DNA from: a virus
Lineage: Duplodnaviria; Caudoviricetes
Reading direction: 5' to 3' (one strand)
Virus record (IMG/VR): IMGVR_UViG_3300032288_004603
Location: 1 to 52,764 of that record
Length of the DNA: 52,764 nucleotides
Part shown: in pieces, positions 3,713 through 36,865 of the stretch
How the letters are laid out: each line of letters starts with the position of its first letter
Numbering within the stretch: the stretch's first letter is position 1
Made by a program: the position numbers and the translations under genes
The notes under the pieces: generated by a model
Seen by the model: only the letters and a program-made list of their open reading frames with translations
What the model was told of the DNA's origin: nothing
Databases searched by the model: none

Positions 3713-3816
3713 ACTACAAAGGTAAGAATAATATTTTTAATATCCTAGTAAAATAAATTTTTTTTTCTAATTTTTTTTTCTTACCTTTGTATTGTCTAAT
3801 TATTAAAACATATATT

Positions 3817-4047
3817 ATGAAAGATTTATTTGAAACACCCGAATTAATTCCCGACAATGTTCAAGCGGTATTGGAAACCTTTAATGAGGATTGTGATAAT
3901 ACCTATCACGAATTGGATAGGATATTGAGTGAGATTGAACCTTTGGGTTATACCTTTGATTATTATTTGGACGCAGAGCCTTATGGGTTAAGACCAATTG
4001 AAATGGAGTTGGTTGAATTGGAAGGTTGGGAACATATTAATGATTAA
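3817..4047 (+). CDS. acidic hypothetical protein (cassette gene)
   Basis: ATG after promoter-leader repeat; track TTG start lies inside the promoter. Confidence 0.8.
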   Translation: MKDLFETPELIPDNVQAVLETFNEDCDNTYHELDRILSEIEPLGYTFDYYLDAEPYGLRPIEMELVELEGWEHIND

Positions 4048-4050
4048 AAT

Positions 4051-4110
4051 ATTTGGATAATTAAAATATTATTCTTATCTTTGTATTGTCTAATTATTAA
4101 AACATTTATT
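4051..4110 (+). promoter_or_regulatory. representative Bacteroidota-type promoter and leader
   Basis: atttggataattaaaatattattcttatctttgtattgtctaattattaaaacatttatt before ATG. Confidence 0.85.
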
Positions 4111-5217
4111 ATGAGAAAGCAATTTAATGAATTGGTTGAAACATTGAAGCGTTGGGATTTGTACCAAAAGGACGATGAGGTTGATACGGCATTGACTAAT
4201 TTGGAAAATAAAATTGATGAGGTTGAGAAACGCATTGAGTGTGCGGTGCGAAGTTCAGCAGAAGCTAACAAGTCAATTTTACTTTATACTGAAAGGGTTG
4301 ATAACAATGAAACATTTCAAATGAACGTTGATGACCATGATTCAATTTTGAGAGGTACAAACGATGTGCTAATTGCGTTGAACATGAACGATACTGAATG
4401 TATTGATTTCAATTGGTATTGGTTATTTCAACCAAAGGAAGAACCTAAACCAATTGCAGTAGGAAATATAGAATACGATTTTCCCGAAGAAGTTTATACA
4501 ATTGGCAATGCTGATAATACTGATATAGTTGGTGATGTATATGAGAGTGATTTTATTAAACTTTGTGAATTAGGTTTAATATGGTGTGAGAGTGATAAAT
4601 TATTTCCAATTGGTGGGGGCAACAAAACAAACTATGTTGTTCGAAACAATGAGTTTATTCCAATTGTGAAATTAAAACAAATTGATTTGAGCAAAGTACC
4701 AATTAAGAATGAAGTATTTATGACTTTTGAAAGCAGTTGGGGTGAGATTGATTGTGACCGAGAGGGCAACGTGATTGAGATTAGAGGTGATGAGTATATC
4801 AATGGTGAAAGGAATTATATGTTTGACATTGATAAATTTGATTTGGTTGAGTATGGTAAGTTTTGTGAAAGCAAAAATATTACCATGGGTGAAGCTGATG
4901 ATATTTTGGTAGTAGGATTTTGGAATAAAGATTATACATATAGTGAAGCTGATATGGTTTGGAGAAAAAATATGTTTGATGATAATGATGATGATGATGA
5001 AATAGGTGCGCCGACACAATTATGCATTGACTATACTAAACATCAAATAGTAAATAATATTATTTCTCAATTGAAAGATATTGAAGTTGACGGTGAAACC
5101 ATGGAATACATATTGAAACAAGTTGGCATGGGAGACCAAGTATTGAAGCAGTTATTTGCCCAAACGACAAATGATGAAATTGATTATTTGCATGATGTGA
5201 GAAACGGAAAGGGTTAA
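4111..5217 (+). CDS. acidic hypothetical protein
   Basis: 368 aa ORF from ATG after the repeat. Confidence 0.85.
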   Translation: MRKQFNELVETLKRWDLYQKDDEVDTALTNLENKIDEVEKRIECAVRSSAEANKSILLYTERVDNNETFQMNVDDHDSILRGTNDVLIALNMNDTECIDFNWYWLFQPKEEPKPIAVGNIEYDFPEEVYTIGNADNTDIVGDVYESDFIKLCELGLIWCESDKLFPIGGGNKTNYVVRNNEFIPIVKLKQIDLSKVPIKNEVFMTFESSWGEIDCDREGNVIEIRGDEYINGERNYMFDIDKFDLVEYGKFCESKNITMGEADDILVVGFWNKDYTYSEADMVWRKNMFDDNDDDDEIGAPTQLCIDYTKHQIVNNIISQLKDIEVDGETMEYILKQVGMGDQVLKQLFAQTTNDEIDYLHDVRNGKG

Positions 5218-5321
5218 ATACTATACTATATAAAATAATTTAAAAAAAAGTGAGATTTTATTTGGAAGTCTCACTTTTATTTTTTACCTTTGTATTGTCT
5301 AATAATTAAAACATTAAAGTT

Positions 5322-6089
5322 ATGTATTCAAAACCGTTATTATCTAGCAACAATGCTAAAACTGTAAAAGGAGAAAAAAAGAATTTCAAAACGTTTATTC
5401 TTTATATGTCACCTTTCACACAAAATTCTAAAGGGGTTAACCTTTGCCCTATGGCAAGTGAGGGGTGCGCAAGTGCTTGTTTATTTGAGAGTGGGTTTGG
5501 TGGAATTTACACTACTGTAAAACAAGGTCGTATTGAAAAGACTGAATTTTATCTTTCAAATAGAATAGCATTTTTGGATAAGTTGGTAGCTGAAATTTCC
5601 AAGTTAGAAAAGAAGTTTAAAGATAGCGAATTTACTTTAGCTATTCGTTTGAATGGTACAACTGATATTTCCTATGAGAAACAAATTACTAGTAATGGTA
5701 AAACAATTTTCGATACGTTTCCTAATGTACAATTTTACGATTACACAAAGAACTATACACGTTTCAAAAAAGTGTTACCTAGCAATTATCATTTAACATT
5801 TTCACGTTCCGAAATTAACAATGATATTGCAATAGATTTGTTAAGCAAAGGACACAATGTTGCTATGGTATTTGATAAGTTACCCGAAACTTATTTAGGT
5901 TACAAAGTGATTAATGGTGACGAAACTGATTTACGTTTCTTAGATGATAACAATGTAATTGTTGGTTTGAAGTACAAAAAAGTAACTGGCAAGGGTGGTG
6001 CTGAAAAAAACAAAGAAGCTATGTTGGACGGGTTTGTAATTGTAACACAAGCCAAGGTAGATAAAAAGAAGTTAAGTAAGGTTGCTTAA
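5322..6089 (+). CDS. Gp88-like protein (Cys-cluster, radical-SAM-like fold)
   Basis: CPMASEGCASACL, RLNGTTDI, FYDYTK and NYHLTFS motifs typical of the phage GP88 family. Confidence 0.75.
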   Translation: MYSKPLLSSNNAKTVKGEKKNFKTFILYMSPFTQNSKGVNLCPMASEGCASACLFESGFGGIYTTVKQGRIEKTEFYLSNRIAFLDKLVAEISKLEKKFKDSEFTLAIRLNGTTDISYEKQITSNGKTIFDTFPNVQFYDYTKNYTRFKKVLPSNYHLTFSRSEINNDIAIDLLSKGHNVAMVFDKLPETYLGYKVINGDETDLRFLDDNNVIVGLKYKKVTGKGGAEKNKEAMLDGFVIVTQAKVDKKKLSKVA

Positions 6090-6173
6090 TTAGACAAAAA
6101 AAGTGGCATTATAATTTGGTAGTGTCACTTTTTTTCTTTATCTTTGTATTGTCTAATTATTAAAACATAAAAC

Positions 6174-6407
6174 ATGAAAGCTTTAAATTTTTTATTGCGT
6201 TCTGAAATCACAGATGTAGATATATTAAATAATATTTGTGATGATACCAAGGCGCTTTTAATTGATGAGGATAATTGTTGGATTGAAATTTCTGACAATG
6301 GGTTCTTTGTCCCTGATGGTTGGAGTGGTACTAGAACCAACGATATTGTCGAAGCAAAAACGGCTTTGATTAAATTTAAAATTGATAACGAAATTTCTTT
6401 ATTTTAA
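6174..6407 (+). CDS. hypothetical protein (cassette gene)
   Basis: ATG after repeat. Confidence 0.8.
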   Translation: MKALNFLLRSEITDVDILNNICDDTKALLIDEDNCWIEISDNGFFVPDGWSGTRTNDIVEAKTALIKFKIDNEISLF

Positions 6408-6467
6408 TTTGGAAATATAGAATAATATTATTATCTTTGTATTGTCTAATAATTAAAACATAATCTT

Positions 6468-6716
6468 ATGGCTACAAAAAGAGAATTAGCTGAAAAACAA
6501 ATTGAGTTACAATCAAGAATGATTGCATTATCCAATGTTAATCTTGTAACGTGTGGGCATTGTGGTAGCATATTGTTACACGAATTGAACGATGAAGATA
6601 TTGAGTGCTTCGCTTGTCAGAGTGTTTTAGACCAAAGTGATTGTCCCGACTTGTGGTATGAGGGTTGCCAAAACAATAGTGAGTTTGATGAGGATGAGGA
6701 TATTCAAAGTGTCTAA
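6468..6716 (+). CDS. small zinc-finger protein
   Basis: CGHC...CFAC motif; ATG after repeat. Confidence 0.8.
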   Translation: MATKRELAEKQIELQSRMIALSNVNLVTCGHCGSILLHELNDEDIECFACQSVLDQSDCPDLWYEGCQNNSEFDEDEDIQSV

Positions 6717-6735
6717 TTATATAAAACAAAATAAA

Positions 6736-7023
6736 ATGGAAAGTATTGAATACAAGGGTAAGAAATATCCTACACGATTATTCATTGTTGATAATCCCGA
6801 ATTTGGTGAACACCAAACAATAAGAATTGCAACTGATAGTTTGGATATTGCTATGGGTAATCATTTAAAACACGGTGAAGAAGAAACAAAGGTTGATGAC
6901 CAAATTTATTTCTATGTTGAGGACGAAGTAATTGAATTGTCTGCTGAAGAAATTTGTGAAAATCATTTGGATGTTCCTATGAAATTTATTGAAGAAATTA
7001 GTGAGGAATATTTGGAAAAGTAA
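6736..7023 (+). CDS. hypothetical protein
   Basis: ATG (MESIEYK) after leader-only remnant gtctaattatataaaac. Confidence 0.75.
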   Translation: MESIEYKGKKYPTRLFIVDNPEFGEHQTIRIATDSLDIAMGNHLKHGEEETKVDDQIYFYVEDEVIELSAEEICENHLDVPMKFIEEISEEYLEK

Positions 7024-7070
7024 AAAATTATTCTTATCTTTGTAGTGTCTAATAATTAAAACAAAAGAAA

Positions 7071-7430
7071 ATGGAAAATCTAGTATTGGAAAAACAAATT
7101 GCATTCTTTTCACAAGACTATTCTGATGCAATGCAAATTGAAACTTTGAAAATTCACATTACCCCAACTGATGTTGAGAACATTCGCAAGGCAATGGAAC
7201 TTGTTAAGGGTAACGATTTTATTTCAAGCATTCATATTGACTTAAACGGACACGTTGAGTATTTGAATGATGAGGGGGTTGAAGTTGAGGAATGGAGAGT
7301 TGATGTTGAAAGGTTTGTGGTATATAGTGATAGTGCTTACTACTATGCACAAAACAAATGGCATTCGGGCGACCAAATTGAAAGTGATTCTATTGAGTGT
7401 GATGATTTGGGTATTGTTGTAAAGGCATAA
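7071..7430 (+). CDS. hypothetical protein (cassette gene)
   Basis: ATG after repeat. Confidence 0.8.
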   Translation: MENLVLEKQIAFFSQDYSDAMQIETLKIHITPTDVENIRKAMELVKGNDFISSIHIDLNGHVEYLNDEGVEVEEWRVDVERFVVYSDSAYYYAQNKWHSGDQIESDSIECDDLGIVVKA

Positions 7431-7514
7431 ATAATTTTGAAAATAATCCATGGTTTATTTGGAATTGTGGATTATTTTCCTTATCTTTGAAGTGTCTAAT
7501 TAAAACAATATAAC

Positions 7515-7889
7515 ATGAAAAGTTTCAAAGTAAGATTTAATTTGGGTAGAGGTAAGAACTACATGAAGTGGAAAATCCAACACCCTGATGGTACAATTGA
7601 GTATCATTCACCAACAGATATTCAGCTATTAATGCATGACTGTATCCTCAAGAACCATAAGAAAACCGCACAAAAGATTTACGATGGAGGAGAGAAGGTT
7701 GTGTGTGCATGGGTTCTTTGCAAGTCACTAGCAATTAAGAAAGAAGCATTCATTCAAGCGGATACACACGGAGAAAGAATACGTTATAATCCGCGGGTTA
7801 CACCGCATTGGATTCTGGACGGTGAGAATGTTGATGGGATGTCAGTGGACAAGTTGGTTAGTGTGGATTTTGGATTATATAAAATATAA
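7515..7889 (+). CDS. hypothetical phage protein
   Basis: ATG after repeat; RFNLGRG and RYNPR motifs. Confidence 0.8.
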   Translation: MKSFKVRFNLGRGKNYMKWKIQHPDGTIEYHSPTDIQLLMHDCILKNHKKTAQKIYDGGEKVVCAWVLCKSLAIKKEAFIQADTHGERIRYNPRVTPHWILDGENVDGMSVDKLVSVDFGLYKI

Positions 7890-7901
7890 AACAATATTAT
7901 T

Positions 7902-8228
7902 ATGGATAATATTTCAGATTTAGATGTAGCGAAGAAATTAGTAGCTATTAAGACTTCAGCTGATTCCCGTGGAATTGAATTCAATTTAAGTTTAAAAAGG
8001 GTTCGACAGTTATTAAATACAAAACGATGTTTTATTAGTGGGGTGAAATTGAACCGTATCCAACAAGACCCGAACCAACTAACATTTGACAGGTTGGACA
8101 ATAGCAAAGGGTATACGGACGATAATGTTGTTGCCTGTTCACTGAGAGTAAATAGATTGAAGGATTCGTTAACCATTGAAGACATAACGATGTTATATAT
8201 GGCGGTTCAGAAAAAAAATAAAAAATAA
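7902..8228 (+). CDS. HNH-fold (His-Me finger) nuclease-like protein
   Basis: RGIEFNLS...CFISG...TFDRLDNSKGYTDDNVVAC...N pattern. Confidence 0.6.
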   Translation: MDNISDLDVAKKLVAIKTSADSRGIEFNLSLKRVRQLLNTKRCFISGVKLNRIQQDPNQLTFDRLDNSKGYTDDNVVACSLRVNRLKDSLTIEDITMLYMAVQKKNKK

Positions 8229-8264
8229 TTTGGTTAATTAAAAAATAATTTGTATCTTTGTATT

Positions 8265-8390
8265 GTCTAATTAATAAGCAACTTACACGACAAAAAAGAT
8301 TAAGGGTGGCAAGCTTATGTTTTAAATTAGACACCAAGAGGGCAACACATAAATTCTACAAAAGACCACCCGTTGTGTTGCCCTTTTATT
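8265..8390 (+). ncRNA. putative anti-leader small RNA
   Basis: Promoter repeat followed by no ORF; contains gttttaaattagaca (reverse complement of leader tgtctaatttaaaac) and AGGGCAACAC/GTGTTGCCCT stem + T run. Confidence 0.5.
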
Positions 8391-8405
8391 TAAATCCAAA
8401 ATAAT

Positions 8406-8627
8406 ATGTATACTTTTAAAAATGTCGTATTACAGAGAGAGCACAAAGAGTTATTAGATAGTATGGTAGACCTAGATAAGGGAACGTTAGGAGGACACTC
8501 CATAGAAATAGTAACAGACGACCCGATATCATACGAAAGCTTTTTGTACCAAGGACGAACGGCAGAATCAGACAGAGACCATGATTTTAGAATTTTGGAA
8601 GAATTAATGAAAAAAACCACCGAATAA
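8406..8627 (+). CDS. hypothetical protein
   Basis: ATG ORF of 73 aa. Confidence 0.7.
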   Translation: MYTFKNVVLQREHKELLDSMVDLDKGTLGGHSIEIVTDDPISYESFLYQGRTAESDRDHDFRILEELMKKTTE

Positions 8628-8686
8628 TTTGGTGGTTTTATTTTTTTTTATTATCTTTGTATTGTCTAATAATTAAAACATAAAAT

Positions 8687-8971
8687 ATGGCTGGGCATTT
8701 ACCTTTAGTTACAACTGATTTTCATGTTAAATTGGTTGAGGAATTTAAAAACAATCGAGAGTTACAAACTGCTAAATTCTTTGATAGAATAAGAGTTGAA
8801 GGGTTTGAAGGATATTTTCAAAGATTACCCGAAGAATATAACATGGATGAAGAAACTGGATTAAAAGATAATCATATATTCTTTTATTGTGGAAATGAAA
8901 TGAATGATGAATATTTTGAAATTCATTTGGATGATAAACTAAAAATTAACCAAGTTTATTTGGTAATGTAA
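8687..8971 (+). CDS. hypothetical protein (cassette gene)
   Basis: ATG after repeat. Confidence 0.8.
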   Translation: MAGHLPLVTTDFHVKLVEEFKNNRELQTAKFFDRIRVEGFEGYFQRLPEEYNMDEETGLKDNHIFFYCGNEMNDEYFEIHLDDKLKINQVYLVM

Positions 8972-9020
8972 GATATTATTCTTATCTTTGTATTGTCTAA
9001 TTATTTAAAACAATATTATT

Positions 9021-9287
9021 ATGGCAAAAGCATTTAGACCACAAGTAATTGTTAATGTCCCTAGAGACTACAATGGTGAATTTGGGGATAGTGTATCAAA
9101 CGGACACATTCAAAGACAATTTGCTACGTATTCGGAAGTAAAGAAACGCATGAGAGATTTGTTAGAAGTTTCAAAGAACAATGAGGTTTCTGTATACAGG
9201 CACAGGAGAGGTGAATGGGGAGAATGGTTTGAGAAGTGGGCGATGATTAATGGTAAACCACAGATTTTCAAACAAGGTTGGCAATAA
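9021..9287 (+). CDS. hypothetical protein (cassette gene)
   Basis: ATG after repeat. Confidence 0.8.
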   Translation: MAKAFRPQVIVNVPRDYNGEFGDSVSNGHIQRQFATYSEVKKRMRDLLEVSKNNEVSVYRHRRGEWGEWFEKWAMINGKPQIFKQGWQ

Positions 9288-9304
9288 TATAAAACAATAT
9301 TATT

Positions 9305-9478
9305 ATGGAAGTAGTAGCATGTAAAAAAGAATTTAGTGAGGGTAAGCGATTTGGTTACACCATTAAGCATAACCAGCCAATTGGTTGGTTGGGAACAACA
9401 GGTGATTATATTGGTTGGTATCGTTACAAAACGCATGCAATCGAAAGAATGCAAGAATTGAAAAAAAGTTTGAAATAA
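9305..9478 (+). CDS. small hypothetical protein (57 aa, MEVVACKK...)
   Basis: Read manually; leader aaaacaatattattATG. Confidence 0.7.
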   Translation: MEVVACKKEFSEGKRFGYTIKHNQPIGWLGTTGDYIGWYRYKTHAIERMQELKKSLK

Positions 9479-9540
9479 ATTTGGATATATCAATTTATAT
9501 TCTTATCTTTGTATTGTCTAATAATTAAAACTTATAAATT

Positions 9541-10395
9541 ATGCCAAATCACATTACAAACCGATTAACAATTATCGGAACAGAAGAACAAGTAAAACAA
9601 GTTCGTGAAGCAATTAAAGGGGAACGTGAAGACCAATTTATTGACTTCAATAAGATTGCACCCATACCAAAAGAATTGGAGGGTACACAAAGTCCATTAC
9701 GAATTATTTCCCAAGAGGAATATGATGAGCAAGAACGAAGAATTCGTGAGAATGATTTAACCGATAATGAGAAAAATTGGGGATTGTCAAGGGGTTTAAC
9801 AAGGGAACTTGCTGATGAATATATCGAGAAATTCGGACACGCTGAATGGTATGGTTGGCAAACTTCAAATTGGGGTACAAAGTGGAATGCTTATGACCAA
9901 ACTGAACTTGATGAAAATTGCATTGAATTTCAAACTGCGTGGGCAACACCATTTGAGGTATTGGTTAATTTGAGTAGAATGTTTCCCGAAGTAACTTTTG
10001 AAGTGAAATATGCTGATGAGGATTTTGGTTACAATGTTGGGGAGTACACATTAGAGGGTGGTGATGAAATAGACACCAATATACCTGACGGGGGAAGTGT
10101 TGAGGCATTGGAAATGGCTATGGAGATTCAATATGGTACACCCGATGAGTATTTTGATTGCAACCAAGAAATTTTTGGTGAATACATTGATGATGATGAG
10201 GAAGAATTGAGTGATTATGAATTGACAATGATTGATATTGCTTACAAGCATGGAGTACACCCCGAAGAGGATTGTGGCTACCACAGACTTGTATTGGCAA
10301 GATTTAAAGAACTTGCATTGGAAGATGAGAACTTTGAACTTGTTATTGTAATTGACAAGGAATTGAGCAAGGTTGAAAGTGAGGGAGAAGAATAA
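9541..10395 (+). CDS. Api92/YubB-like (DUF1281) ferredoxin-fold protein
   Basis: MPNH..N.L.I.G start, WYGWQTSNWGTKWNA and FQTAWATP motifs. Confidence 0.75.
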   Translation: MPNHITNRLTIIGTEEQVKQVREAIKGEREDQFIDFNKIAPIPKELEGTQSPLRIISQEEYDEQERRIRENDLTDNEKNWGLSRGLTRELADEYIEKFGHAEWYGWQTSNWGTKWNAYDQTELDENCIEFQTAWATPFEVLVNLSRMFPEVTFEVKYADEDFGYNVGEYTLEGGDEIDTNIPDGGSVEALEMAMEIQYGTPDEYFDCNQEIFGEYIDDDEEELSDYELTMIDIAYKHGVHPEEDCGYHRLVLARFKELALEDENFELVIVIDKELSKVESEGEE

Positions 10396-10484
10396 AAAAT
10401 AATATAAAAAAAGTGACACTATAATTTGGTAGTGTTATTTTTTTTTCTTACCTTTGTATTGTCTAATAATTAAAACATAAAAAA

Positions 10485-10952
10485 ATGGGAACACGTAGTT
10501 TAACAAGAGTAATCGAAACTTATCGAGATGAGAAAAAAGACAAGCAAGTAAAAGTAACGCTTGTAAATATGTATCGTCAATATGACGGATACCCCGAAGG
10601 ACATGGTACTGAATTAGCAGACTTCCTAAAAGCTGGAAAAGTTGTTAATGGAATTGGTGGTGACGATACAAATGTATTCAATGGTGCGGGTTGTTTAGCA
10701 GCACAAATGATTGCACATTTCAAAGATGGTGCTGGTGGTATTTACATTGAACCAATCACCGCAAAGAATTGCGGACAGGAATATGAGTATGAAGTTATCG
10801 TTGATTTTGATACAAAAGAGGTTACAATGAAGTGTATTGAGGTTGGTTACATTGATAGCAAAGGTAACTATAAAAACGGAAAAATAGTAATATTTGAAGG
10901 AAAACCTGTTGATTTTGAGCAATTTGTTGAAAAATTATCAGAAAAAGCATAA
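10485..10952 (+). CDS. conserved phage protein
   Basis: MGTRS and YRQYDGYPEGHG motifs of a widespread uncharacterised family. Confidence 0.8.
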   Translation: MGTRSLTRVIETYRDEKKDKQVKVTLVNMYRQYDGYPEGHGTELADFLKAGKVVNGIGGDDTNVFNGAGCLAAQMIAHFKDGAGGIYIEPITAKNCGQEYEYEVIVDFDTKEVTMKCIEVGYIDSKGNYKNGKIVIFEGKPVDFEQFVEKLSEKA

Positions 10953-11030
10953 AATAATTGGAAAAAGATTTGGAGAATAGAAATATTCTCCTTATCTTTG
11001 TATTGTCTAATTATTTAAAACTATATTATT

Positions 11031-11309: not shown

Positions 11310-11452
11310 CCTTTGCAACCGCAACCAGGGTTATCATCTTTTTTTATTTCGTTTATAGTTCTTTCTTTGGTGCGTTCTTTTGAGTCTTCATCGTATTTCT
11401 TTTTGATGGTATCAAAAGCTTTCATAAATTTTTTTCTATTACCTTTTTCCAT
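11306..11452 (-). CDS. small basic protein ending in GCGCKG
   Basis: ATG (MEKGNRK) preceded by minus-strand ATATTTAT at 11457-11464. Confidence 0.65.
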   Translation of the reverse strand: MEKGNRKKFMKAFDTIKKKYDEDSKERTKERTINEIKKDDNPGCGCKG

Positions 11453-25125: not shown

Positions 25126-25189
25126 TAAATAATTTGGTCAATTAAAAAATTATACTTATATTTGTATTGTTAATTTAAAAAAAAAGAAA

Positions 25190-25831: not shown

Positions 25832-25905
25832 AACTTTTGTATAAATTATTTGGAAATGTTATTTTATATTCTTATCTTTGTATTGTCTAATTAAAACAAC
25901 AAAAA

Positions 25906-26580
25906 ATGAAAGTAGTTATTGAGAATGTTATTTTTGATAAAGAAGTTGGTAGCAGACTTTTGAAGTTGAAACACGAAACTTGCCCTTATCCACAATTAGA
26001 GAATGAATGGGATAGTATTGTTCCTTTGTCATTCAAAGATATTGCCAAAATGAAAAACTTGGAAGAAAGGCGAATTGGTATTGTTTGTCTTGGGTTGGAT
26101 AGACTTATTAAGGAAGTAAACCCAAAACTTATTTCAAGTAAAACATTGAAGAAAAAAGCTAACTATATTGATAAAGACGGAAACCACATTAAAAAAACTT
26201 ACGAAGATACTTACGAACTTTACGAAGTGAGTGGGGAACAATTTAGTGAGGGGTTGGATAGTTGGCGAACTGCAAGTAATTCACACTATGTAAAATGTAA
26301 GGACACCTCAACGGATAGAGAATATCTTATTTGGGTTGATATTAGAGAAGTAAGTAGAACAAATGGGGGTAGTGGTTGGAGTGTTGAGGCAAAAGACGTA
26401 AACCCTATTCAATGTATTGCTTGGACTATTCAAACAAATGTTAAAGAGGGTAACATTGAAAAGATTATTCGACAAGGGGATTGTGTTTTGGTTAAACCGA
26501 TTAACCCTAATGATTTGTTGGATAACCCACGACACCTAACCGAAAAAGAATATAAAAAATTGCTTGTTGCAGAAAGTTAA
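25906..26580 (+). CDS. DUF6745-like protein with C-terminal RQGD motif
   Basis: NLEERR, YVKCKDTSTDREYLIWV, IAWT and IIRQGD motifs. Confidence 0.65.
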   Translation: MKVVIENVIFDKEVGSRLLKLKHETCPYPQLENEWDSIVPLSFKDIAKMKNLEERRIGIVCLGLDRLIKEVNPKLISSKTLKKKANYIDKDGNHIKKTYEDTYELYEVSGEQFSEGLDSWRTASNSHYVKCKDTSTDREYLIWVDIREVSRTNGGSGWSVEAKDVNPIQCIAWTIQTNVKEGNIEKIIRQGDCVLVKPINPNDLLDNPRHLTEKEYKKLLVAES

Positions 26581-26679
26581 ATTGTTGTTGTTTTAAGTTG
26601 ATGAAAAAAAGTGGCACTATTATTTGGTAGTGTCATTTTTTTTTCTTATCTTTGTATTAACAATTTAAAACAATAAACA

Positions 26680-26920
26680 ATGAGAAAAATTTCAACATTC
26701 GTATTTCTTTTTATCATTTCATTAATAGGTTTTGGGAATGAGTAATTGGAATCCAAATAGTGCAAAGCACAAGGCACAACATTGTGGTTACAAGGGTAAA
26801 CCAACAAAACAAAGTGTAAACGCTTTATTGAGCCTTTATTCAGCTTGTGTGGTAGTTAAGGAAACACCAAACCCAGTTTCAAAAAAAGAAATTGGCAAAC
26901 AATTAAAATTTGATTTTTAA
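26680..26920 (+). pseudogene. frameshifted secreted/membrane protein gene
   Basis: Signal-like 21 aa ORF (26680-26745) and downstream ORF in +1 frame; removing one T in ggttttggga fuses them. Confidence 0.5.
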
Positions 26921-26997
26921 CAAAAAAATATCGTTTTTTATTTGGTAGTTTCAAAAATAATCCTTATCTTTGTATTGTCTAATTAAAACAACAACTT

Positions 26998-27318
26998 ATG
27001 TCAGCAACAAATTTCCCAAAAGATGAAGTTACTTTCTTCGCAACAGATTTAACTATTAATGAAATGGTTAAACATTACACTTTCCAAGAACTTATGGCTA
27101 TGTTCCTATTCGGAAAGAATACAATTGAAAAGTTAGATTATATTGTTAAAAATAATCTTTTTGATGAATGCGAAGTACACCCTTTGGAAGTCCTTAAAGA
27201 TAAACTATACTTTCAGACAAAAACATTCATTGTGCAATTAGCACTTGAAAAAATGAATACTTGTGAAATAGTATTAATTGAATCAATGTGTAATGTAGCA
27301 ACATTATTTAAAAACTAA
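26998..27318 (+). CDS. hypothetical protein (cassette gene)
   Basis: ATG after repeat. Confidence 0.8.
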   Translation: MSATNFPKDEVTFFATDLTINEMVKHYTFQELMAMFLFGKNTIEKLDYIVKNNLFDECEVHPLEVLKDKLYFQTKTFIVQLALEKMNTCEIVLIESMCNVATLFKN

Positions 27319-27323
27319 TTAAG

Positions 27324-27470
27324 ATGAACGAGGAAGTTTCAGCACTATATTTAGATGAACAAGGTTGTTTATCTATTGACTACGGAACAACACCAATGTT
27401 TGTTGAGGGATTTGGGGAATGTGTATTCGGAGATTATATTGTTTACACCCAGAAAAAAAATCAAAAATAA
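27324..27470 (+). CDS. small hypothetical protein (48 aa)
   Basis: Read manually; fills gap before next promoter. Confidence 0.6.
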   Translation: MNEEVSALYLDEQGCLSIDYGTTPMFVEGFGECVFGDYIVYTQKKNQK

Positions 27471-27527
27471 TTAGGAAATATCGTTTTATATTATTATCTT
27501 TGTAGTGTCACTTTAAAACAATAAGAA

Positions 27528-27815
27528 ATGAAAGCAGAAATTAAAATTACAAGCAGTTACGGATTTGACCGCAATTGGACGTTGGTTGTATCAACGGCAA
27601 AAAAAACAAAGTCTTTCTATTTAGGACAAGACGTTAAGTTTTGCAGTAGAGTATTGGGTATGGAGCCTTCATACATTGTTCAACAAATTGGAACGTCAAC
27701 AATTGGGGAAGGAACAAGAGGTAACAAAAGACTTGCTAAATTCATTTGTAACGAACTTGGATTGAACGGAAGAAACATTGATAAGATTGAGCCTTGGGGG
27801 TTGTGTTGCCAATAG
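27528..27815 (+). CDS. hypothetical protein (cassette gene)
   Basis: ATG after repeat; FYLGQDVKFCSRVLG motif. Confidence 0.8.
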   Translation: MKAEIKITSSYGFDRNWTLVVSTAKKTKSFYLGQDVKFCSRVLGMEPSYIVQQIGTSTIGEGTRGNKRLAKFICNELGLNGRNIDKIEPWGLCCQ

Positions 27816-27826
27816 CACACAGCCTT

Positions 27827-27844
27827 GTACACAATTGTGTATAT
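27827..27844 (+). repeat. oriented palindrome GTACAC-N4-GTGTATAT, copy 6
   Basis: gtacacaattgtgtatat. Confidence 0.8.
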
Positions 27845-27856
27845 GCGCATACAAGA

Positions 27857-27878
27857 AAGGGGACAATTTAGTCCCCTT
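27857..27878. terminator. hairpin between convergent genes
   Basis: AAGGGGAC-AATTTA-GTCCCCTT. Confidence 0.65.
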
Positions 27879-27901
27879 AATTATTTAATCTTATTTTATT
27901 T

Positions 27902-28111
27902 TTAATTACTTAAACATTCGGATTGTTGGAAGTGTAATCTTGCAACTTGTAAGAAAACATAGTCAGGAAGTTTCATCATCGAATCTTTAATCTCATCGTC
28001 AAACCAAAATGATAATTCACCAGTTTTTTCGTTGTATAGGTTATTTAAACCTTTAGCCATTAGGTTGCCCTCATTAAGTTGAACATCACCCACTTTTCTT
28101 AATACATTCAT
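27902..28111 (-). CDS. hypothetical protein (inverted cassette)
   Basis: Full promoter-leader repeat on minus strand at about 28120-28170. Confidence 0.8.
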   Translation of the reverse strand: MNVLRKVGDVQLNEGNLMAKGLNNLYNEKTGELSFWFDDEIKDSMMKLPDYVFLQVARLHFQQSECLSN

Positions 28112-28221
28112 ATTGTTTTGTTTTAAATAGACAATACAAAGATAATAATATAAAATGATATAACCAAATTTTTTATCGTTTATTTTAACGATATTTTTAA
28201 TTATCGTCTAATTTAACGATA

Positions 28222-28280
28222 GTGCGTGTTGGAGTCTACTCTCTCGTTCCTCTCGGCTCGACCCTTACCTTATTGGTACA
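28222..28280 (-). ncRNA. dispersed structured sRNA, copy 6
   Basis: GGGUCGAGCCGAGAGGAACGAGAGAGUAGACUCCAAC; compensatory UCG/CGA stem. Confidence 0.75.
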
Positions 28281-28413
28281 CTACAAAGATAAGAATAATA
28301 ATTGACACCACCAAATTATTTGACAAAAAAAATAAATAAAAAATTATCCTATTTTATTTGGAGAATTGAAAAAGATTCCTTATCTTTGTATTGTCAATTT
28401 AAAACAACGAATT

Positions 28414-28686
28414 ATGAAAATGGAACAATTCTTAAAAGAAATCAAAGGAACTCAATTTGAAGCTGACTTTGCAAAGTCAGCTGAGTTGAATGTTAATGGT
28501 GCGCCAACTAGCAAAGCATATTGGAACTTAATCCTTTCAATCAGAGATTGCAAGTTATATTCAAAAGGTATCAAACCACACAGATTTTGGAAAATAAGCG
28601 ATGTTAAAGCGTATTTTGGTGTTAAAGGTAATGCACAAGGTATTGCAGAAAAATTAGAGCAATACAAAGCAGTTTTGGTGGCTTAA
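28414..28686 (+). CDS. hypothetical protein (cassette gene)
   Basis: ATG after repeat. Confidence 0.8.
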   Translation: MKMEQFLKEIKGTQFEADFAKSAELNVNGAPTSKAYWNLILSIRDCKLYSKGIKPHRFWKISDVKAYFGVKGNAQGIAEKLEQYKAVLVA

Positions 28687-28748
28687 AAAAAATCAAAAAT
28701 AATTGCAAAAAGATTTGGAGAATTGAAAAATTCTCCTTATCTTTGTTA

Positions 28749-28801
28749 TAACAAAAAGGGGCTGACACGAGAGTGGTAGTAGAGTAGACTCCGACCTACC
28801 C
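28749..28801 (+). ncRNA. dispersed structured sRNA, copy 7
   Basis: TATCTTTG promoter, GGGCUGACACGAGAGUGGUAGUAGAGUAGACUCCGACCUACC. Confidence 0.75.
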
Positions 28802-28903
28802 TAAAAAAACATATTATAAATTAATTTAAAAAATTATCCTATTTTATTTGGATAATTGAAAAAGATTCCTTACCTTTGTAGAGTCAATTTAAAACAATAA
28901 GAT

Positions 28904-29119
28904 ATGTCAGTAAATGCTAGTTTAGAAATCGCTAATGAGTTAATGAACAACAAAACAGTATTAACCAAAGAAGAGCGTGATGTGTGCGTACAATTTATGC
29001 CTGAAATGGCTAAAGAATACTTATTTCATAATTCTTGGAATAACACTTGGTTAAACCTTAATGTGTATTCTGAGATTGAAAAAGAAGAATCCGATTTACG
29101 TAAAGAAATAGGTTTTTAA
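28904..29119 (+). CDS. hypothetical protein (cassette gene)
   Basis: ATG after repeat. Confidence 0.75.
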   Translation: MSVNASLEIANELMNNKTVLTKEERDVCVQFMPEMAKEYLFHNSWNNTWLNLNVYSEIEKEESDLRKEIGF

Positions 29120-29154
29120 TAAACCTATTTTTATATACCAAAAAAAAATATAAA

Positions 29155-29212
29155 GTGGGTCGGAGTCTACTCTTCTGTTCCTCTCGGCTCAGCCCCTTGT
29201 CATCCATTGACT
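29155..29212 (-). ncRNA. dispersed structured sRNA, copy 8
   Basis: GGGCUGAGCCGAGAGGAACAGAAGAGUAGACUCCGACCCAC after minus-strand promoter. Confidence 0.75.
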
Positions 29213-29344
29213 ATACAAAGATAAGAATAATAATTGAAACTACCAAATTTTTTAACAAAAAAATAAATAAAAAAATTATCCTATTTTATTTGGATAATTG
29301 AAAAAGATTCCTTACCTTTGTAGTGTCAATTTAAACAACAAACA

Positions 29345-29815
29345 ATGAAAAATTTATTATTTCGCTTATTCATCTTAATTTCAATAGGGTTAATTATCTT
29401 TTTTGCTATTTCAACTAAAACAAATAAGGTATCAAAAGAAATTGTAAATATAACAAATGAAGTTGATACAACAACTGAAACTTTTGAAGAAACTGAAACC
29501 AATGATGAAATAGTTGAAACGAAGAAAGAAAAAGAATTTAATAATTTTTTAGTTAAAGGTCAAATCAATACTTATTCAAATGGTGTTGATACCTATGTTG
29601 TTGAATTAGATACTTTGGATAGAATTGTAATTACACAACCAAATAATTTAACTAATGGTCATTTTTGGGATAAAAATAATTGCGTATTTAAAAATGATTA
29701 CATTTATGTTGATTGGGTAACTTATGTTGATTGGGTAACTACTGAATACTATATTAAAAATACTGAATTAATCATTGTTAAAAATGGTAAATCCACAAAA
29801 TATAAATTAATTTAA
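29345..29815 (+). CDS. membrane-anchored protein
   Basis: N-terminal hydrophobic helix; internal 18-nt tandem duplication (YVDWVT x2, 29705-29740). Confidence 0.8.
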   Translation: MKNLLFRLFILISIGLIIFFAISTKTNKVSKEIVNITNEVDTTTETFEETETNDEIVETKKEKEFNNFLVKGQINTYSNGVDTYVVELDTLDRIVITQPNNLTNGHFWDKNNCVFKNDYIYVDWVTYVDWVTTEYYIKNTELIIVKNGKSTKYKLI

Positions 29816-29892
29816 AAAAATATAGTTTTATATTTGGTTATATCAAAAATAATCCTTATCTTTGTATTGTCTAATTATTAAAACATAAAACA

Positions 29893-30006
29893 ATGGTAGT
29901 ATTCTTAACACTTTTGGCACTGGCTTTTTATTGGGTGCATAAACACGAAGAAAAAGAGGATGATAATTTAAGCGATGAAGCTTGGAATGAAAAATATAAC
30001 CGATAA
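29893..30006 (+). CDS. small membrane peptide (37 aa)
   Basis: Read manually; ATG after repeat. Confidence 0.65.
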   Translation: MVVFLTLLALAFYWVHKHEEKEDDNLSDEAWNEKYNR

Positions 30007-30074
30007 AATTTGGTTATATCAAAAATAATCCTTAACTTTGTATTCACTAATCACTTAAAACTAAAATTAAAAAA

Positions 30075-30461
30075 ATGGAAAATCTAAAAAAATCAAAATT
30101 ACTTAATGGTGTGTTATTCATCTTTTCGTTTCTTGTTTGCACACTAATAACATTCCCAATTGCACAAGAATTGGACGGCACTTTATCATTCATTATTTTA
30201 TTAATTATTGTCACAATTGGAATTATTGTTCTAACAAAAACACTTGAACAAAAATTGGATGAACACGTATTTTCAGAAATTGAAAGGCATAAATATAAAC
30301 ATATTAGTCAGTTCTTTGATACTATGGAAGATGATAAAGAATTTAGTAAGAATGTATTAAGAGAAACGATACCGATATATAACGATGATAGGGAGAAAAT
30401 CGGGGAACAAACTGTTTATAGTGCAATATCACAAAAGAAACAAAGATTTTTAAGATTATAG
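30075..30461 (+). CDS. two-TM membrane protein
   Basis: Two hydrophobic segments; ATG after repeat. Confidence 0.8.
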   Translation: MENLKKSKLLNGVLFIFSFLVCTLITFPIAQELDGTLSFIILLIIVTIGIIVLTKTLEQKLDEHVFSEIERHKYKHISQFFDTMEDDKEFSKNVLRETIPIYNDDREKIGEQTVYSAISQKKQRFLRL

Positions 30462-30559
30462 TTGTTGTTTTAAGTTGATGAAAAAAAGTGAGGTAATTAT
30501 TTGGTTATCTCATTTTTTTTATTTATCTTTGTATTGTCTAATTATTAAAACTTAAAATT

Positions 30560-30700
30560 ATGTTAGTATTAGTTTGTTCTTTAGTTTGGTCTGTTGGATT
30601 TGTTGTCAGCATGGTTGGTATGTATTTAGTTAAAGATTATCGAAATGGTATAATCTATAATGGTTTTGTTGGTAAAATACAAAACTTAATAAAACATTAA
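30560..30700 (+). CDS. small membrane peptide (46 aa)
   Basis: Read manually; ATG after repeat. Confidence 0.65.
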   Translation: MLVLVCSLVWSVGFVVSMVGMYLVKDYRNGIIYNGFVGKIQNLIKH

Positions 30701-30773
30701 AAAAAACCAAAATAAATTTGGTAGATTAAAAAATTATTCTTATCTTTGTAGTGTCTAATTAAAACAACTAAAA

Positions 30774-30890
30774 ATGAAAACAATTCAAATCACACAACAC
30801 GAACTTCAACAAACTATGAAACATAGCATACACAAATCAAAAAAAGATTATTCAAGAAAATCAAAACATAAAAATAAAGGGTGGGATTAA
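30774..30890 (+). CDS. small basic peptide (38 aa, ...KSKKDYSRKSKHK...)
   Basis: Read manually; ATG after repeat. Confidence 0.7.
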   Translation: MKTIQITQHELQQTMKHSIHKSKKDYSRKSKHKNKGWD

Positions 30891-30962
30891 TTTCCCGCTC
30901 AAAAATTTGGAAATGTCATTTTTATTTTGTATCTTTGTATTGTCAATTTAAAACAATATATT

Positions 30963-31154
30963 ATGAATGCTATTCAGGAATTAGAAACCAACTTTAAAAA
31001 ACAATTTAATAAAGTATTTAGAAAATTAAATTACATTATCTCATATAGTGAATGCGTTATATTACTAGACACATTGAAAGGTGTCAAATATAACCCAATT
31101 GAGAATGAATATGCTTATAGGTGGCAATTAAAATTCAACGAATTGTTAGCGTAA
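30963..31154 (+). CDS. hypothetical protein (cassette gene)
   Basis: ATG after repeat. Confidence 0.75.
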   Translation: MNAIQELETNFKKQFNKVFRKLNYIISYSECVILLDTLKGVKYNPIENEYAYRWQLKFNELLA

Positions 31155-31213
31155 AATTTGCATATATCAAAACTATTCATTATCTTTGTAAGGTCAATTT
31201 AAAACAATATACA

Positions 31214-31423
31214 ATGAGCAAAACATTAAACATTTCAGGAGTACAAGAAAGACTTATCGAATATCACCGCAAACCAACAGCCTACGAAATCAAATTTGGT
31301 TATGGTGCAACACATTATAAAACATTTGCTGAATCAGCTTGTACCGATAAAAATGGGCGTGTTAAAAAGCGTTTAAAATGTCCTATTGATGGACTAATCT
31401 ACACACAAAATTACACAAGTTAA
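31214..31423 (+). CDS. hypothetical protein (cassette gene)
   Basis: ATG after repeat; EIKFGYGATHY motif. Confidence 0.75.
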   Translation: MSKTLNISGVQERLIEYHRKPTAYEIKFGYGATHYKTFAESACTDKNGRVKKRLKCPIDGLIYTQNYTS

Positions 31424-31501
31424 TAAAAAAGTTACCAAAAAATTTGGTAGATTAAAAAATAATCCTTATCTTTGTATTGTCTAATTAAAACAACAGAAAA
31501 A

Positions 31502-31642
31502 ATGAGAAAAAATCTAGTAATTGAAGGTCTGCAAGTAGTAACATTGAAAACTTTACAAGTTGCATCAGTTTGCTTTGGTGCAATCGCTTTCGGTGGTATT
31601 GGTTATGCGTTTTATCGAATCATTACCGATAATATAGCATAA
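31502..31642 (+). CDS. small membrane peptide (46 aa)
   Basis: Read manually; ATG after repeat. Confidence 0.65.
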   Translation: MRKNLVIEGLQVVTLKTLQVASVCFGAIAFGGIGYAFYRIITDNIA

Positions 31643-31752
31643 CAAATAATTACATTATTTAATTGTAACCCCTATCAAAAGTAGGGGTATTTTTTTTTAA
31701 AAATAATTCATAATTTATTTGGTCAATTCAAAAATTATTCTTACCTTTACAA

Positions 31753-31810
31753 TATCAAACAAAGGGGCTGACACTTACAAGGTGGTAGTAGAGTAGACTC
31801 CAACCTACCT
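31753..31810 (+). ncRNA. dispersed structured sRNA, copy 9
   Basis: TACCTTTA promoter variant, GGGCUGACACUUACAAGGUGGUAGUAGAGUAGACUCCAACCUACC. Confidence 0.75.
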
Positions 31811-31912
31811 TATATTATTATACGAAAAAAAAAATTAAAAATAATTCATAAAAAATTTGGTGGTATCAAAAATAATCCCTATCTTTGTAAGGTCAATTTA
31901 AAACAATATATT

Positions 31913-32146
31913 ATGAATGCAAGACCTATTTATGTTATCGCAAATGAAATTAAAAAAGATTGGGTTAAACCAAACTATGCCGCAAAGCCTTATTTAGAAG
32001 CTATGGAATGTTTAAATTCCATTAATGATAAGTATGGTTGGGATAGTGGTAAATCGGTTGTCTTATACTTCCTATGTAACGCAAACACTTGGAAAGGTGA
32101 AACTGCAAAACGTATCAAAGCTGAATTAAAGTCCCTTACAAAATAA
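31913..32146 (+). CDS. conserved small phage protein
   Basis: RP...IA.EI..DW...AKPYL.AM...YFL.NA..W.G..A.RIKAEL pattern. Confidence 0.85.
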   Translation: MNARPIYVIANEIKKDWVKPNYAAKPYLEAMECLNSINDKYGWDSGKSVVLYFLCNANTWKGETAKRIKAELKSLTK

Positions 32147-32240
32147 GGGACAAAAAAAAATTAAAAATAATTCATAAAAAATTTGGTGGATTCAAAAATA
32201 ATCCTTACCTTTACAATATCAAATTAAAACACTTAAAAAA

Positions 32241-32798
32241 ATGGAAACAACTTTAAACAAATCAATCGAGGCACTAAAAGTAATTAACGCTATTTCATCA
32301 GTATTGGCAAAATCCCCTACTGGCGTTTCTTTCGTATCTATCAAAGGTTATACTAACTCTTATGGCGAAGTATCTAATAACCTTGTAAATGTTGGTGCAA
32401 GTCTTGAAAACGCAAAGAAAAAAGATATTGAAACTTTGCAAAGTTTAGACGTTACTACTTTGAACGGAGATAGTATCTTACTTGAAACTGCAAAGGTAGA
32501 ATTAATTAACTCTTTCATCAAGCCTGACGAAAATAGAAGTCAAGGACAAATTGACGCTTACACTATCGTAGCCAAAGGAATTAAAGTACACAACCAAACA
32601 GGCGAAATTTACGTTTTCGGCTTACGTAACAGCAAAACAGTTGTTGTTGAGGGTGTTTATCCACAAGTGAAGTCAAGACCTCTTACAATCGCTAAAAATC
32701 AATTAAGAAAGGAATTGAAATCAAACAAGTTTACTCAATACAAACTTTCTTCAACTGCCGTAATGAAAATGAATGGCGAAGAACTAATCTTTGAATGA
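32241..32798 (+). CDS. hypothetical protein (last cassette gene)
   Basis: 185 aa; ATG after repeat variant. Confidence 0.85.
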   Translation: METTLNKSIEALKVINAISSVLAKSPTGVSFVSIKGYTNSYGEVSNNLVNVGASLENAKKKDIETLQSLDVTTLNGDSILLETAKVELINSFIKPDENRSQGQIDAYTIVAKGIKVHNQTGEIYVFGLRNSKTVVVEGVYPQVKSRPLTIAKNQLRKELKSNKFTQYKLSSTAVMKMNGEELIFE

Positions 32799-32820
32799 TT
32801 AGCTTTAAGCAAAAATAATC

Positions 32821-32843
32821 AAGTCCCGAAAGGGACTTTTTTT
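32821..32843 (+). terminator. intrinsic terminator closing the cassette array
   Basis: AAGTCCC-GAAA-GGGACTT + T run. Confidence 0.8.
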
Positions 32844-36864: not shown

Positions 36865-36865
36865 A

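Follow-up and report, generated by a model that had tools for sequence, protein, structure and literature searches.

A dense array of promoter-leader repeats in a putative T4-type jumbo phage of Bacteroidota, with genes shuffled at the repeats

The viral DNA analysed here, called the window below, is the whole IMG/VR virus record IMGVR_UViG_3300032288_004603 (52,764 nucleotides (nt), estimated completeness 16%). Its left part carries an array of small genes in which each gene or short operon stands behind its own near-identical repeat, made up of a promoter and a leader. Gene order differs between related contigs inside this array and is kept outside it, and the linkage of sequences to the neighbouring genes changes within the repeats. 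We suggest that the array is probably a hyperplastic, and probably early, gene region of a T4-like jumbo phage infecting a Bacteroidota host, shuffled at its repeats. The array and the copies at its edges are as follows.

3731..32240, plus strand: array of 51 leader-type promoter repeats (56 strict promoter matches), each before one gene or a short operon (motif scans)
3758..3816, plus strand: first copy, with a degenerate -33 element and an intact -7 box and leader; precedes the gene at 3817-4047 (motif scan)
31838..31912, plus strand: last leader-type copy, carrying the variant TAAGGTCAATTTAAAAC; precedes the gene at 31913-32146 (motif scan)
32162-32230, plus strand: degenerate copy preceding the gene at 32241-32798 (motif scan)

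The array lies far above chance. Its 17-mer core, TTTGTATTGTCTAATTA, was found 46 times with at most 3 mismatches, compared to 1.87 expected, and none of 100 shuffled sequences reached 46; 42 of the matches are on the plus strand at 3786-31487, three are on the minus strand and one is outside the array at 37699. An 18-mer with at most 4 mismatches gave 52 plus-strand matches, of which 50, from 3785 to 31883, were true copies, and the matches at 14821 (without -33/-7 context) and 37698 (outside the array) were dropped. The promoter pattern TTTG-N18-21-TAnnTTTG occurred 61 times on the plus strand and 8 times on the minus strand (69 in total), whereas 100 dinucleotide shuffles averaged 4.4 +/- 1.9 for the two strands together. 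Most of these plus-strand sites (56/61) fell inside the array (3.7-32.3 kb), and in 59 of the 61 the spacer between TTTG and TA was exactly 20 nt. An earlier note on this DNA had counted about 60 copies of the repeat over this region, which is right for the promoter part; the full leader, TATTGTCTAATTA(TTA)AAAC, is present in 51 copies.

When the copies were aligned on the -7 box, the consensus was a composite element of about 85-100 bp that consists of an A-run, ATTTGG, 19 nt (not about 17, as the earlier note had it), TTATCTTTG, TATTGTCTAATTA, an optional TTA or ATT, AAAAC, 6-10 nt and the ATG. The information content, 0.3-1.85 bits per position from the first base past the -7 box through +19, stays as high as within the box, and conservation therefore reaches into the 5' untranslated region, as the same note had claimed; positions +1 to +9 are conserved to the same degree as the -7 box. 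The -33 and -7 elements also occur without this leader, both in promoters outside the array (868, 3580, 39336, 41731 and 42752) and in those of a tRNA stretch within it (17531..19270). This sets the leader apart as a module of its own, belonging to the array.

The units between the repeats are mostly single genes. Among the 51 intervals between leader-type copies, 42 hold one open reading frame (ORF, at least 35 amino acids (aa)), six hold two, one holds three and two hold seven. Only three of the 71 array ORFs were similar to each other, and all three overlap a small-RNA repeat and are probably spurious. As no true paralogues were found, the genes of the array are unrelated to each other, which bears out the description of one-gene cassettes of mostly unrelated genes.

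In Bacteroidetes, the promoter of the primary sigma factor (sigma-ABfr) is reported to have TTTG at -33 and TAnnTTTG (TAHHTTTG) at -7, the two middle bases of the -7 box never being G, and in ordinary Flavobacterium promoters the -33 element is described as 'much less evident' (PMC6847099). For Flavobacterium johnsoniae, the same source places the G of the -7 box at -5 and the start of transcription 4-5 nt past the box; it also describes mRNAs of this phylum as having no Shine-Dalgarno sequence, with adenines at -3, -6, -12 and -13 promoting initiation (PMC6847099). The array motif reads as such a promoter, its consensus being equal to the published one: the -7 box has the form TAHHTTTG, with TC, CC, TA, AC or TT and never G in the middle, and TTTG lies about 20 nt upstream. 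At the sequence level, the 56 strict matches in the array accordingly have the form of host primary-sigma promoters. The predicted start site is the G of TATTG. The ATG lies 24-30 nt past the -7 box in 45 of the 50 array copies with a downstream ORF, and AAAAC begins 12-14 nt before the ATG in 41/48 copies (AAAAC at -13 to -9). No Shine-Dalgarno sequence is visible at the array copies; the A-rich signal stands instead, as expected for the host phylum, and it lies together with the start codon inside the conserved element. Most of the repeat would thus be a near-consensus promoter with a short leader and an optimal initiation region, and the fixed stretch from +1 to +9, GTCTAATTA, is the part that published promoter and translation rules do not explain. 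The strong host-type promoter grammar seen earlier was confirmed, but its type is Bacteroidota sigma-A and not sigma-70.

A part of the copies also contains a terminator-like hairpin. A terminator scan found 24 sites in 3.7-23.6 kb, compared to 6.2 +/- 2.7 in shuffles, and the 66 nt around each copy folded at a mean of -9.4 kcal/mol, compared to -5.8 kcal/mol for shuffles. Only 16/56 copies fold at -14 kcal/mol or lower, and the terminator is therefore an optional part of the element. Two designs were seen. The first consists of an A-run, a stem with the -33 TTTGG in its loop, and a T-run (for example 5246-5278, 6096-6135, 7439-7479 and 8613-8639). In the second, the hairpin fills the spacer and is followed by a T-rich -7 box, as in GGATAAGtgaaaaCTTATCC and GGAGAATtgaaaaATTCTCC, with the pairing kept by two-sided changes. 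The stem-loop overlaps the promoter instead of preceding it. One copy of each design serves as an example.

6088..6173, plus strand: terminator-type reference copy (fold -19.4 kcal/mol) with an A-run, stem, loop containing the -33 TTTGG (6115-6119), stem and T-run; -7 box TATCTTTG at 6139-6146; predicted start at G 6151, placed by the rule of PMC6847099; leader GTCTAATTATTAAAAC; ATG at 6174
14848..14921, plus strand: spacer-hairpin copy with GGATAAGtgaaaaCTTATCC between -33 and -7, then a T-rich -7 box (scan and fold)

We compared the window (G000) with four relatives, namely G001 (12 kb), G002 (18 kb), G003 (40 kb) and G004 (a complete record, 287,855 bp), all of which are metagenome contigs, 65-90% identical. 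The 18-mer occurred 16 times in G001, 26 times in G002, 22 times in G003 and 29 times in G004, where 26 of the matches were at 12.1-34.8 kb. In G004, 29/31 strong promoter matches were at 8.5-34.9 kb (one 26-kb region), and 52/80 generic promoter matches were in the first 40 kb. The matches being confined to one stretch, this promoter class marks one region of the genome. Early promoters of T4 likewise mark one region.

The plus-strand ORFs of the five contigs were clustered (71 clusters) and their order was compared. The order was broadly similar, with many single genes displaced. The Api92-like gene (9541-10395), for example, has clusters 10 and 12 as neighbours in the window, 26 and 27 in G001, 21 and 28 in G003 and 23 and 69 in G004, and its terminator hairpin and leader variant travel along with it; the GP88 gene, found close to the array start in the window, comes after cluster 32 in G002 and G004. 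When all ordered genome pairs were pooled, adjacency was kept across a repeat in 18 of 71 cases, compared to 25 of 38 cases without a repeat (Fisher 7e-5). Between the window and G003, 13/20 shared adjacencies were broken inside the array and 0/14 outside it, where the following region served as the internal control.

33243..52135, no strand assigned: flanking non-array region, gene order conserved with G003 and G004 (order comparison)

The breakpoints could also be located relative to the promoter. Ends of nucleotide homology blocks (at least 250 nt) fell within -65 to +35 of a -7 box in 58 of 94 cases, a zone that makes up 21% of array positions. At junctions from different genomes that share the downstream gene only, the last 14 nt before the ATG were more alike (0.64) than at unrelated junctions (0.54). 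Where the upstream gene only was shared, the stretch from -60 to -33 was more alike (0.59 vs 0.43) but the leader was not (0.53), and the spacer was intermediate. The leader follows the downstream gene and the -60 to -33 stretch follows the upstream gene, so that linkage switches inside the promoter core. In the comparisons of order, adjacency, block ends and linkage, the insertions, deletions and replacements thus map to the repeats, as in a hyperplastic region. The earlier note had named fixed gene order, or breakpoints unrelated to the repeat, as grounds for giving up its proposal; the order is not fixed inside the array, is kept outside it, and breaks at the repeat.

The copies within one genome also share features with each other. 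Each genome has a favoured variant, TATCTTTG in the window, TATATTTG in G004 and GTTTTG for GTATTG in G003, and the promoters of orthologous genes are barely more alike (0.74) than those of non-orthologous genes (0.67). In the variable parts, copies next to each other show a closer resemblance than random pairs do (0.549 vs 0.504; 3/5000 permutations reach the observed value). Identical copies flank some genes, and their sequence differs between genomes; in the window, the copy at 15382-15455 is identical to that at 14848-14921, and the two flank the gene at 14922-15383. Other lineages, found via the Api92-like gene, have one promoter per gene as well (8-10 per 4.8 kb), with other leaders of lower uniformity, such as the TAATCAA class, to which a minority of the window copies belong. 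The uniformity of the leader is therefore a trait of the lineage, which fits homogenisation better than a universal functional need.

The promoter grammar and the relatives suggest that the phage is a distant T4-type jumbo phage of a Bacteroidota host. G004 has a gp23-family major capsid gene (PF07068, E 1.6e-63) whose closest cultured match, at 38%, is from a Flavobacterium phage. Of the 29 window ORFs outside the array, 18 are matched by G004 homologues whose order is the same and runs across the origin of the G004 map, which together with the capsid places the lineage among T4-type carriers. The 'direct terminal repeat' of G004 is only an 87-bp assembly overlap; its map is circular with the physical ends not placed, and it allows no inference on whether the array lies near a physical genome end. 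G004 also has a weak match to a UvsX-like recombinase (phrog_97, E 6.7e-8; the Pfam RecA match is below cut-off). Sigmas from Bacteroidales and Flavobacteriales bins share 37-41% identity with the sigma factor that G004 encodes. In the phage collection searched, no near-identical genome was found. The cultured relative, Flavobacterium phage immuto (MW353176), has no such array, with 0 matches at the 20-nt spacer and 4 at a variable spacer, compared to 3 in the control.

The window also encodes a full-length ClpB-type AAA+ chaperone (839 aa, 48658-51177, minus strand), which is 73% identical to its G004 homologue; two uncultured phage records (635-642 kb) have genes that share 57% identity with it across 81% of its length. 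As a marker of the host it was weak, its best matches (51%) being Bacteroidia and Flavobacteriales bins that are possibly phage DNA themselves.

These observations can be joined into a mechanism. The A-run would come first, joined in a subset of copies by a hairpin that resembles an intrinsic terminator of the upstream gene. It would be followed by a near-perfect promoter (ATTTGG at -33, a 20-nt spacer and TTATCTTTG at -7) with a start at the G of TATTG, by the conserved initial transcribed GTCTAATTA, and by the A-rich signal AAAAC, free of Shine-Dalgarno character, before the ATG. Every copy would be read by the host RNA polymerase, presumably through its primary sigma factor, upon entry of the DNA, and each small gene would then be strongly and independently expressed, probably early in infection. 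Because about 50 copies share a near-identical core in one orientation, unequal copies can pair. Homologous recombination by phage enzymes could thereby delete, insert, move or replace single cassettes, each of them still expressible, perhaps by way of circular intermediates, and the same recombination would homogenise the repeats within a genome.

A bolder extension of this mechanism is possible, and we regard it as doubtful. It takes the arrays as an integrase-free cassette exchange system across a clade of Bacteroidota jumbo phages, in which the repeat would be kept uniform, beyond the demands of expression, as a pairing site, and single units of promoter and gene would be excised as small circles and re-inserted within one genome or between co-infecting phages. 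The array would then be a reconfigurable library for host takeover and counter-defence, and the small RNA and the palindrome described below would belong to the same early module.

Several points weigh against even the simpler reading, a shuffled early region of a T4-like phage. The start sites, the promoter strength and the early timing are only predictions from sequence, the public runs listed for the window DNA including none of RNA. The order of the cassettes in the window lacks independent confirmation, for the four public runs examined consist of k=31 contigs, which break off at each repeat. 'Joints' in these contigs have sides of 23-51 nt inside repeats and are indistinguishable from alignment to another copy, and the low cover over single cassettes in the second run (e.g. 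9704-10370) was not used as evidence. The pooled adjacency comparisons are made of non-independent genome pairs. At 65-90% identity the shuffling events are old, and their breakpoints can be placed only to within the repeat. Operon partners without a repeat may stay joined for functional reasons. A convincing hairpin is found in a minority of copies only. Exact homology between copies is short, the longest shared run having a median of 15 nt and a maximum of 56 nt, and only 14% of copy pairs share at least 25 nt. The assignment to the T4 type rests on G004 and not on genes of the window, and G004 has a full-length sigma factor of its own, to which we return below. Finally, nearly every intergenic space of the array is a repeat, and selection for intact genes alone would put the breakpoints there.

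This last point leads to the strongest of the competing explanations, which we consider rather unlikely. The repeats might be expression signals only, with the shuffling carried out by homing endonucleases, by illegitimate recombination or by block exchange between co-infecting phages, and the breakpoints would then lie at repeats merely since genes end there. Besides the make-up of the intergenic spaces and the short exact homology, the three HNH endonuclease-like genes in or beside the array would suit this explanation, and genes without an intervening repeat do separate as well. They do so in 13/38 cases, however, whereas junctions with a repeat break in 53/71. The switch of linkage inside the core is also at odds with it, and the genome-specific variants and the similarity of neighbours suggest exchange among the copies. 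The uniformity of the leader, being lineage-specific, argues against a purely functional need. In addition, recombination between such elements is reported to have been shown experimentally in T4-type phages (PMC2839356).

A further function might be added to this reading without competing with it. The invariant transcribed stretch GUCUAAUUA might be recognised by a phage factor through which all mRNAs of the array are shut off or tuned together; RegB and RegA of T4 act in this way on early mRNAs. Positions +1 to +9, which are as conserved as the -7 box and unexplained by published determinants, would agree with such a site. Against it, related lineages do without this leader and have others. 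A search for the RegB family gave no match in G004, G000 or G003, but it matched nowhere and is uninformative. An anti-leader version of this idea was rejected: the reverse complement of GTCTAATTA occurs once on the plus strand, compared to 25 sense copies of the leader, and pairing of the small RNA with the leader had duplex energies clearly better than those of shuffled RNAs in only 2/9 cases. We think that such an added function is unlikely.

Slightly less probable still is that the array is read by a phage sigma factor and not by the host primary sigma, or not by the latter alone, and is expressed as a delayed class, in which case the conservation that extends around and beyond the -7 box would mark the specificity of that factor. 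The full-length RpoD/RpoS-like sigma of G004 (291 aa) is a possible true reader, and the -33 element and the -7 flanks are far more uniform in the array than in the ordinary Flavobacterium promoters described in PMC6847099. However, both elements equal the host consensus and should be readable by the host enzyme. The sigma gene of G004 itself stands behind a -7 box of host type without the array leader, no sigma gene is present in the window, and the leader is missing from the promoters outside the array, which have the same -33 and -7 elements.

The remaining explanation, that of an integron-like platform in which a site-specific tyrosine recombinase acts at the repeat or at TGTACACAwwTGTGTA palindromes, is very improbable: among NCBIfam models, the best for a recombinase of G004 are XerA ('site-specific tyrosine recombinase/integron integrase') and integron integrase, the 14-bp palindrome occurs four times in the window with all seven G004 copies within or next to the array, and some spacers form hairpins with compensatory changes, but this enzyme is below every curated cut-off (151.7 vs 265 bits and 94.6 vs 435 bits for the integron-integrase models), a promoter of its own for each cassette with the repeat 5' of the gene is the opposite of an integron, and the exchange points are scattered over the promoter instead of lying at one site. 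The Xer-like enzyme (270 aa) is the single tyrosine recombinase in G004, about 20 kb from the array and directly upstream of the RpoD/RpoS-like sigma (L120:852-2620, minus strand, about 54.3-56.1 kb). No match to the tyrosine recombinase family PF00589 was found in the window or G003, which agrees with the earlier statement that no integrase is visible in the window, and no serine recombinase was found in G004, the window or G003.

Few of the cassette proteins resemble known families. Only 6/65 passed a Pfam cut-off (GP88, L5 gp82, Api92-like DUF1281_C, DUF932, SprT-like and DUF6915). Matches to PHROG families (E <= 1e-5) were obtained for 11/65, and only two of these were functionally named, both of them HNH endonuclease-like. 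Roles of the cassette genes in host takeover or counter-defence are plausible by analogy. An Rfam search of the window at E <= 1 gave three tRNAs only; neither the repeat nor the small RNA matched a family. The genes and tRNAs of the array with an assignment by family or scan include the following.

5322..6089, plus strand: GP88 family gene (Pfam)
7902..8228, plus strand: gene without its own repeat; PHROG families named Srd anti-sigma, HNH endonuclease and endonuclease VII (PHROG)
9541..10395, plus strand: Api92-like DUF1281_C gene, 284 aa (Pfam)
12948..13838, plus strand: DUF932 gene (Pfam)
17531-17605, plus strand: tRNA-Met, inside the array (tRNA/Rfam scan)
17672-18088, plus strand: HNH endonuclease gene among the array tRNAs (PHROG)
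18094-18168, plus strand: tRNA-Arg, inside the array (tRNA/Rfam scan)
19185-19270, plus strand: tRNA-Leu, inside the array (tRNA/Rfam scan)
22733..23278, plus strand: gene with a SprT-like metalloprotease domain (Pfam)

A multicopy small RNA gene of about 60-75 nt was observed in either orientation, with nine copies in the window and 35 across the five contigs.

Minus strand: small RNA copies at 3648-3708, 13963-14018, 22540-22599, 23847-23904, 28222-28279 and 29153-29211
Plus strand: small RNA copies at 12709-12769, 28750-28801 and 31754-31810

Each copy has its own TTTG-N20-TAnnTTTG promoter, and most of the 35 end in a T-run, about a third of them (including 4/9 window copies) being without a clear one. 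The layout comprises a variable 5' hairpin, GGG, a stem CUG/YAG around a variable hairpin, the invariant AGAGUAGACUCC and RACCUACC. Pairing in the outer stem amounts to 91.4%, and 11 cells have changes on both sides, a result that 0/500 shuffles reach; a rival stem around the invariant 12-mer is weaker (63% paired). The stems tested were hand-drawn, and RNAalifold on a MAFFT alignment gave no consensus. In the complete G004, 7/8 copies lie with the array, and many large viral contigs have several copies within a few kb. In bacterial genomes, the 15-mer core of this RNA occurred in unrelated phyla at about the estimated chance rate, which is uninformative. FopS RNAs are multicopy small RNAs of Bacteroides, and a FopS model is stated to be deposited in Rfam (PMC11697453). 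The small RNA had no match at E <= 1 in Rfam, in which that model is reportedly included.

The palindrome tgTACACAwwTGTGTAtatgcg (window 3278, 12323, 22185 and 27828, plus strand) follows genes without a downstream repeat. It is found at orthologous places in G001-G003, and 7/7 G004 copies are at 8.8-36.8 kb, within or next to the array. An operator and a recombinase site are both possible roles for it. The right edge of the array (window about 32935-33040) has, in an AT-rich genome, a stretch of about 100 nt that is rich in G and C runs (ccctcccccc, gggagggtggg and cccccccgttcggggg) and is followed by several short units of A and T runs. Three adjacent genes on the minus strand (35065-38249) encode NAMPT-like (35065-36603), nucleoside 2-deoxyribosyltransferase-like (36866-37360) and PRPP-synthetase-like (37350-38249) proteins. 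The NAMPT-like and PRPP-synthetase-like pair resembles the phage NAD+ reconstitution pathway NARP1 (Adps and Namat) as described in abstracts, and is a putative match. A 67-nt intergenic element has two copies (41715-41781 and 51213-51279) with 70% identity, each between divergent genes.

If our reading is right, the idea that a regulatory element is also a recombination hot spot, as in the promoter/stem-loop cassettes (PeSLs) of T4-type phages, would be extended from phages of Proteobacteria and cyanobacteria to an uncultured clade of Bacteroidota jumbo phages, whose hosts have promoter and translation rules different from those of earlier PeSL hosts. With 51 copies and 42 single-gene units, the array is an unusually clean and dense example, on which the gain and loss of orphan early genes by giant phages could be studied in concrete terms. 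Its approximately 65 small proteins are candidates for host takeover or counter-defence functions in a phylum with few such tools. The repeats are a naturally occurring collection of promoters and leaders close to the consensus, open to testing as parts for gene expression in Flavobacteria or Bacteroides, and the lineage-specific uniformity of the leader would be a measurable signature of concerted evolution in a virus.

Among known systems, the PeSLs are the closest. A PeSL is described as an AT-rich stretch and a stem-loop followed by an early host-type promoter, a ribosome-binding site and an ATG; PeSLs are concentrated in hyperplastic regions of orphan genes, where they are tied to insertions, deletions, replacements and displacements, and they are reported from RB49/phi1, T4/PST and KVP40/nt-1 (PMC4122927, PMC2839356). 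In the literature searched, the term appeared only in papers on T4-like phages of Proteobacteria, on a cyanophage and in reviews, and no PeSL-like elements or such arrays were described for Bacteroidota phages or jumbo phages. The comparison with PeSLs, made already in the earlier note, is apt, since G004, the complete relative closest to the window, is of the T4 type, has a gp23-family capsid gene and is syntenic with the window. In both cases the lineage is of the T4 type, the element joins a host-type early promoter, a translation signal and an ATG, in a part of the copies here with a terminator-like stem-loop, it clusters in a hyperplastic region made up of small orphan genes, and changes between relatives map to it. 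In RB49 and phi1, sequenced mini-circles place the crossovers between the -10 box and the ATG (PMC2839356), and here linkage switches in the repeat between the -33 region and the leader. The differences are that the promoter here is the Bacteroidota type, with TTTG at -33 and TAnnTTTG at -7, and not sigma-70; that an A-rich signal at -13 to -9 takes the place of a Shine-Dalgarno sequence; that the stem-loop, where present, is inside the promoter (around -33 or in the spacer) and not upstream of it, and is strong in a minority of copies only; that the array is very dense (51 copies in 29 kb, 42 single-gene units); and that the initial transcribed sequence is conserved too.

The repeat shares with the Bacteroidetes sigma-ABfr promoter the -7 TAHHTTTG, the TTTG at -33 and a leader of about 20-26 nt, and with the initiation region of that group the adenines near -12/-13 and the lack of a Shine-Dalgarno sequence (PMC6847099). 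It differs in that the -33 element and the spacer are nearly invariant, compared to the weak -33 element reported for hosts (PMC6847099), and in that the -7 flanks (TTATCTTTGTA) and the first 9 transcribed bases are fixed.

The genes of the terminal redundancy of the Bacillus phage SPO1 form a host-takeover module with many strong early promoters. As in the array, there are many small early genes with no assigned function, each or nearly each of them behind a strong host-type promoter. SPO1 belongs to another phage family with a host of another phylum, and we know of no report of its promoters as shuffling points.

Integrons likewise have single-gene cassettes in one orientation with a repeated separator, and as in integrons the content of the array varies between relatives. 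The cassettes of the array, however, carry their own promoters, and the repeat, 5' of the gene, is a promoter and not an attC site. Promoterless cassettes with attC were not found, and neither were an IntI next to the array, an attI or a common Pc promoter; the exchange looks homologous and is spread over the repeat. What had been called integron-like behaviour thus holds as a loose analogy only. A PeSL-type shuffling region of early genes in a new phage-host setting is well supported by these comparisons, and the array is best read, from its sequence, as a PeSL-like hyperplastic region in a new host phylum and not as an integron.

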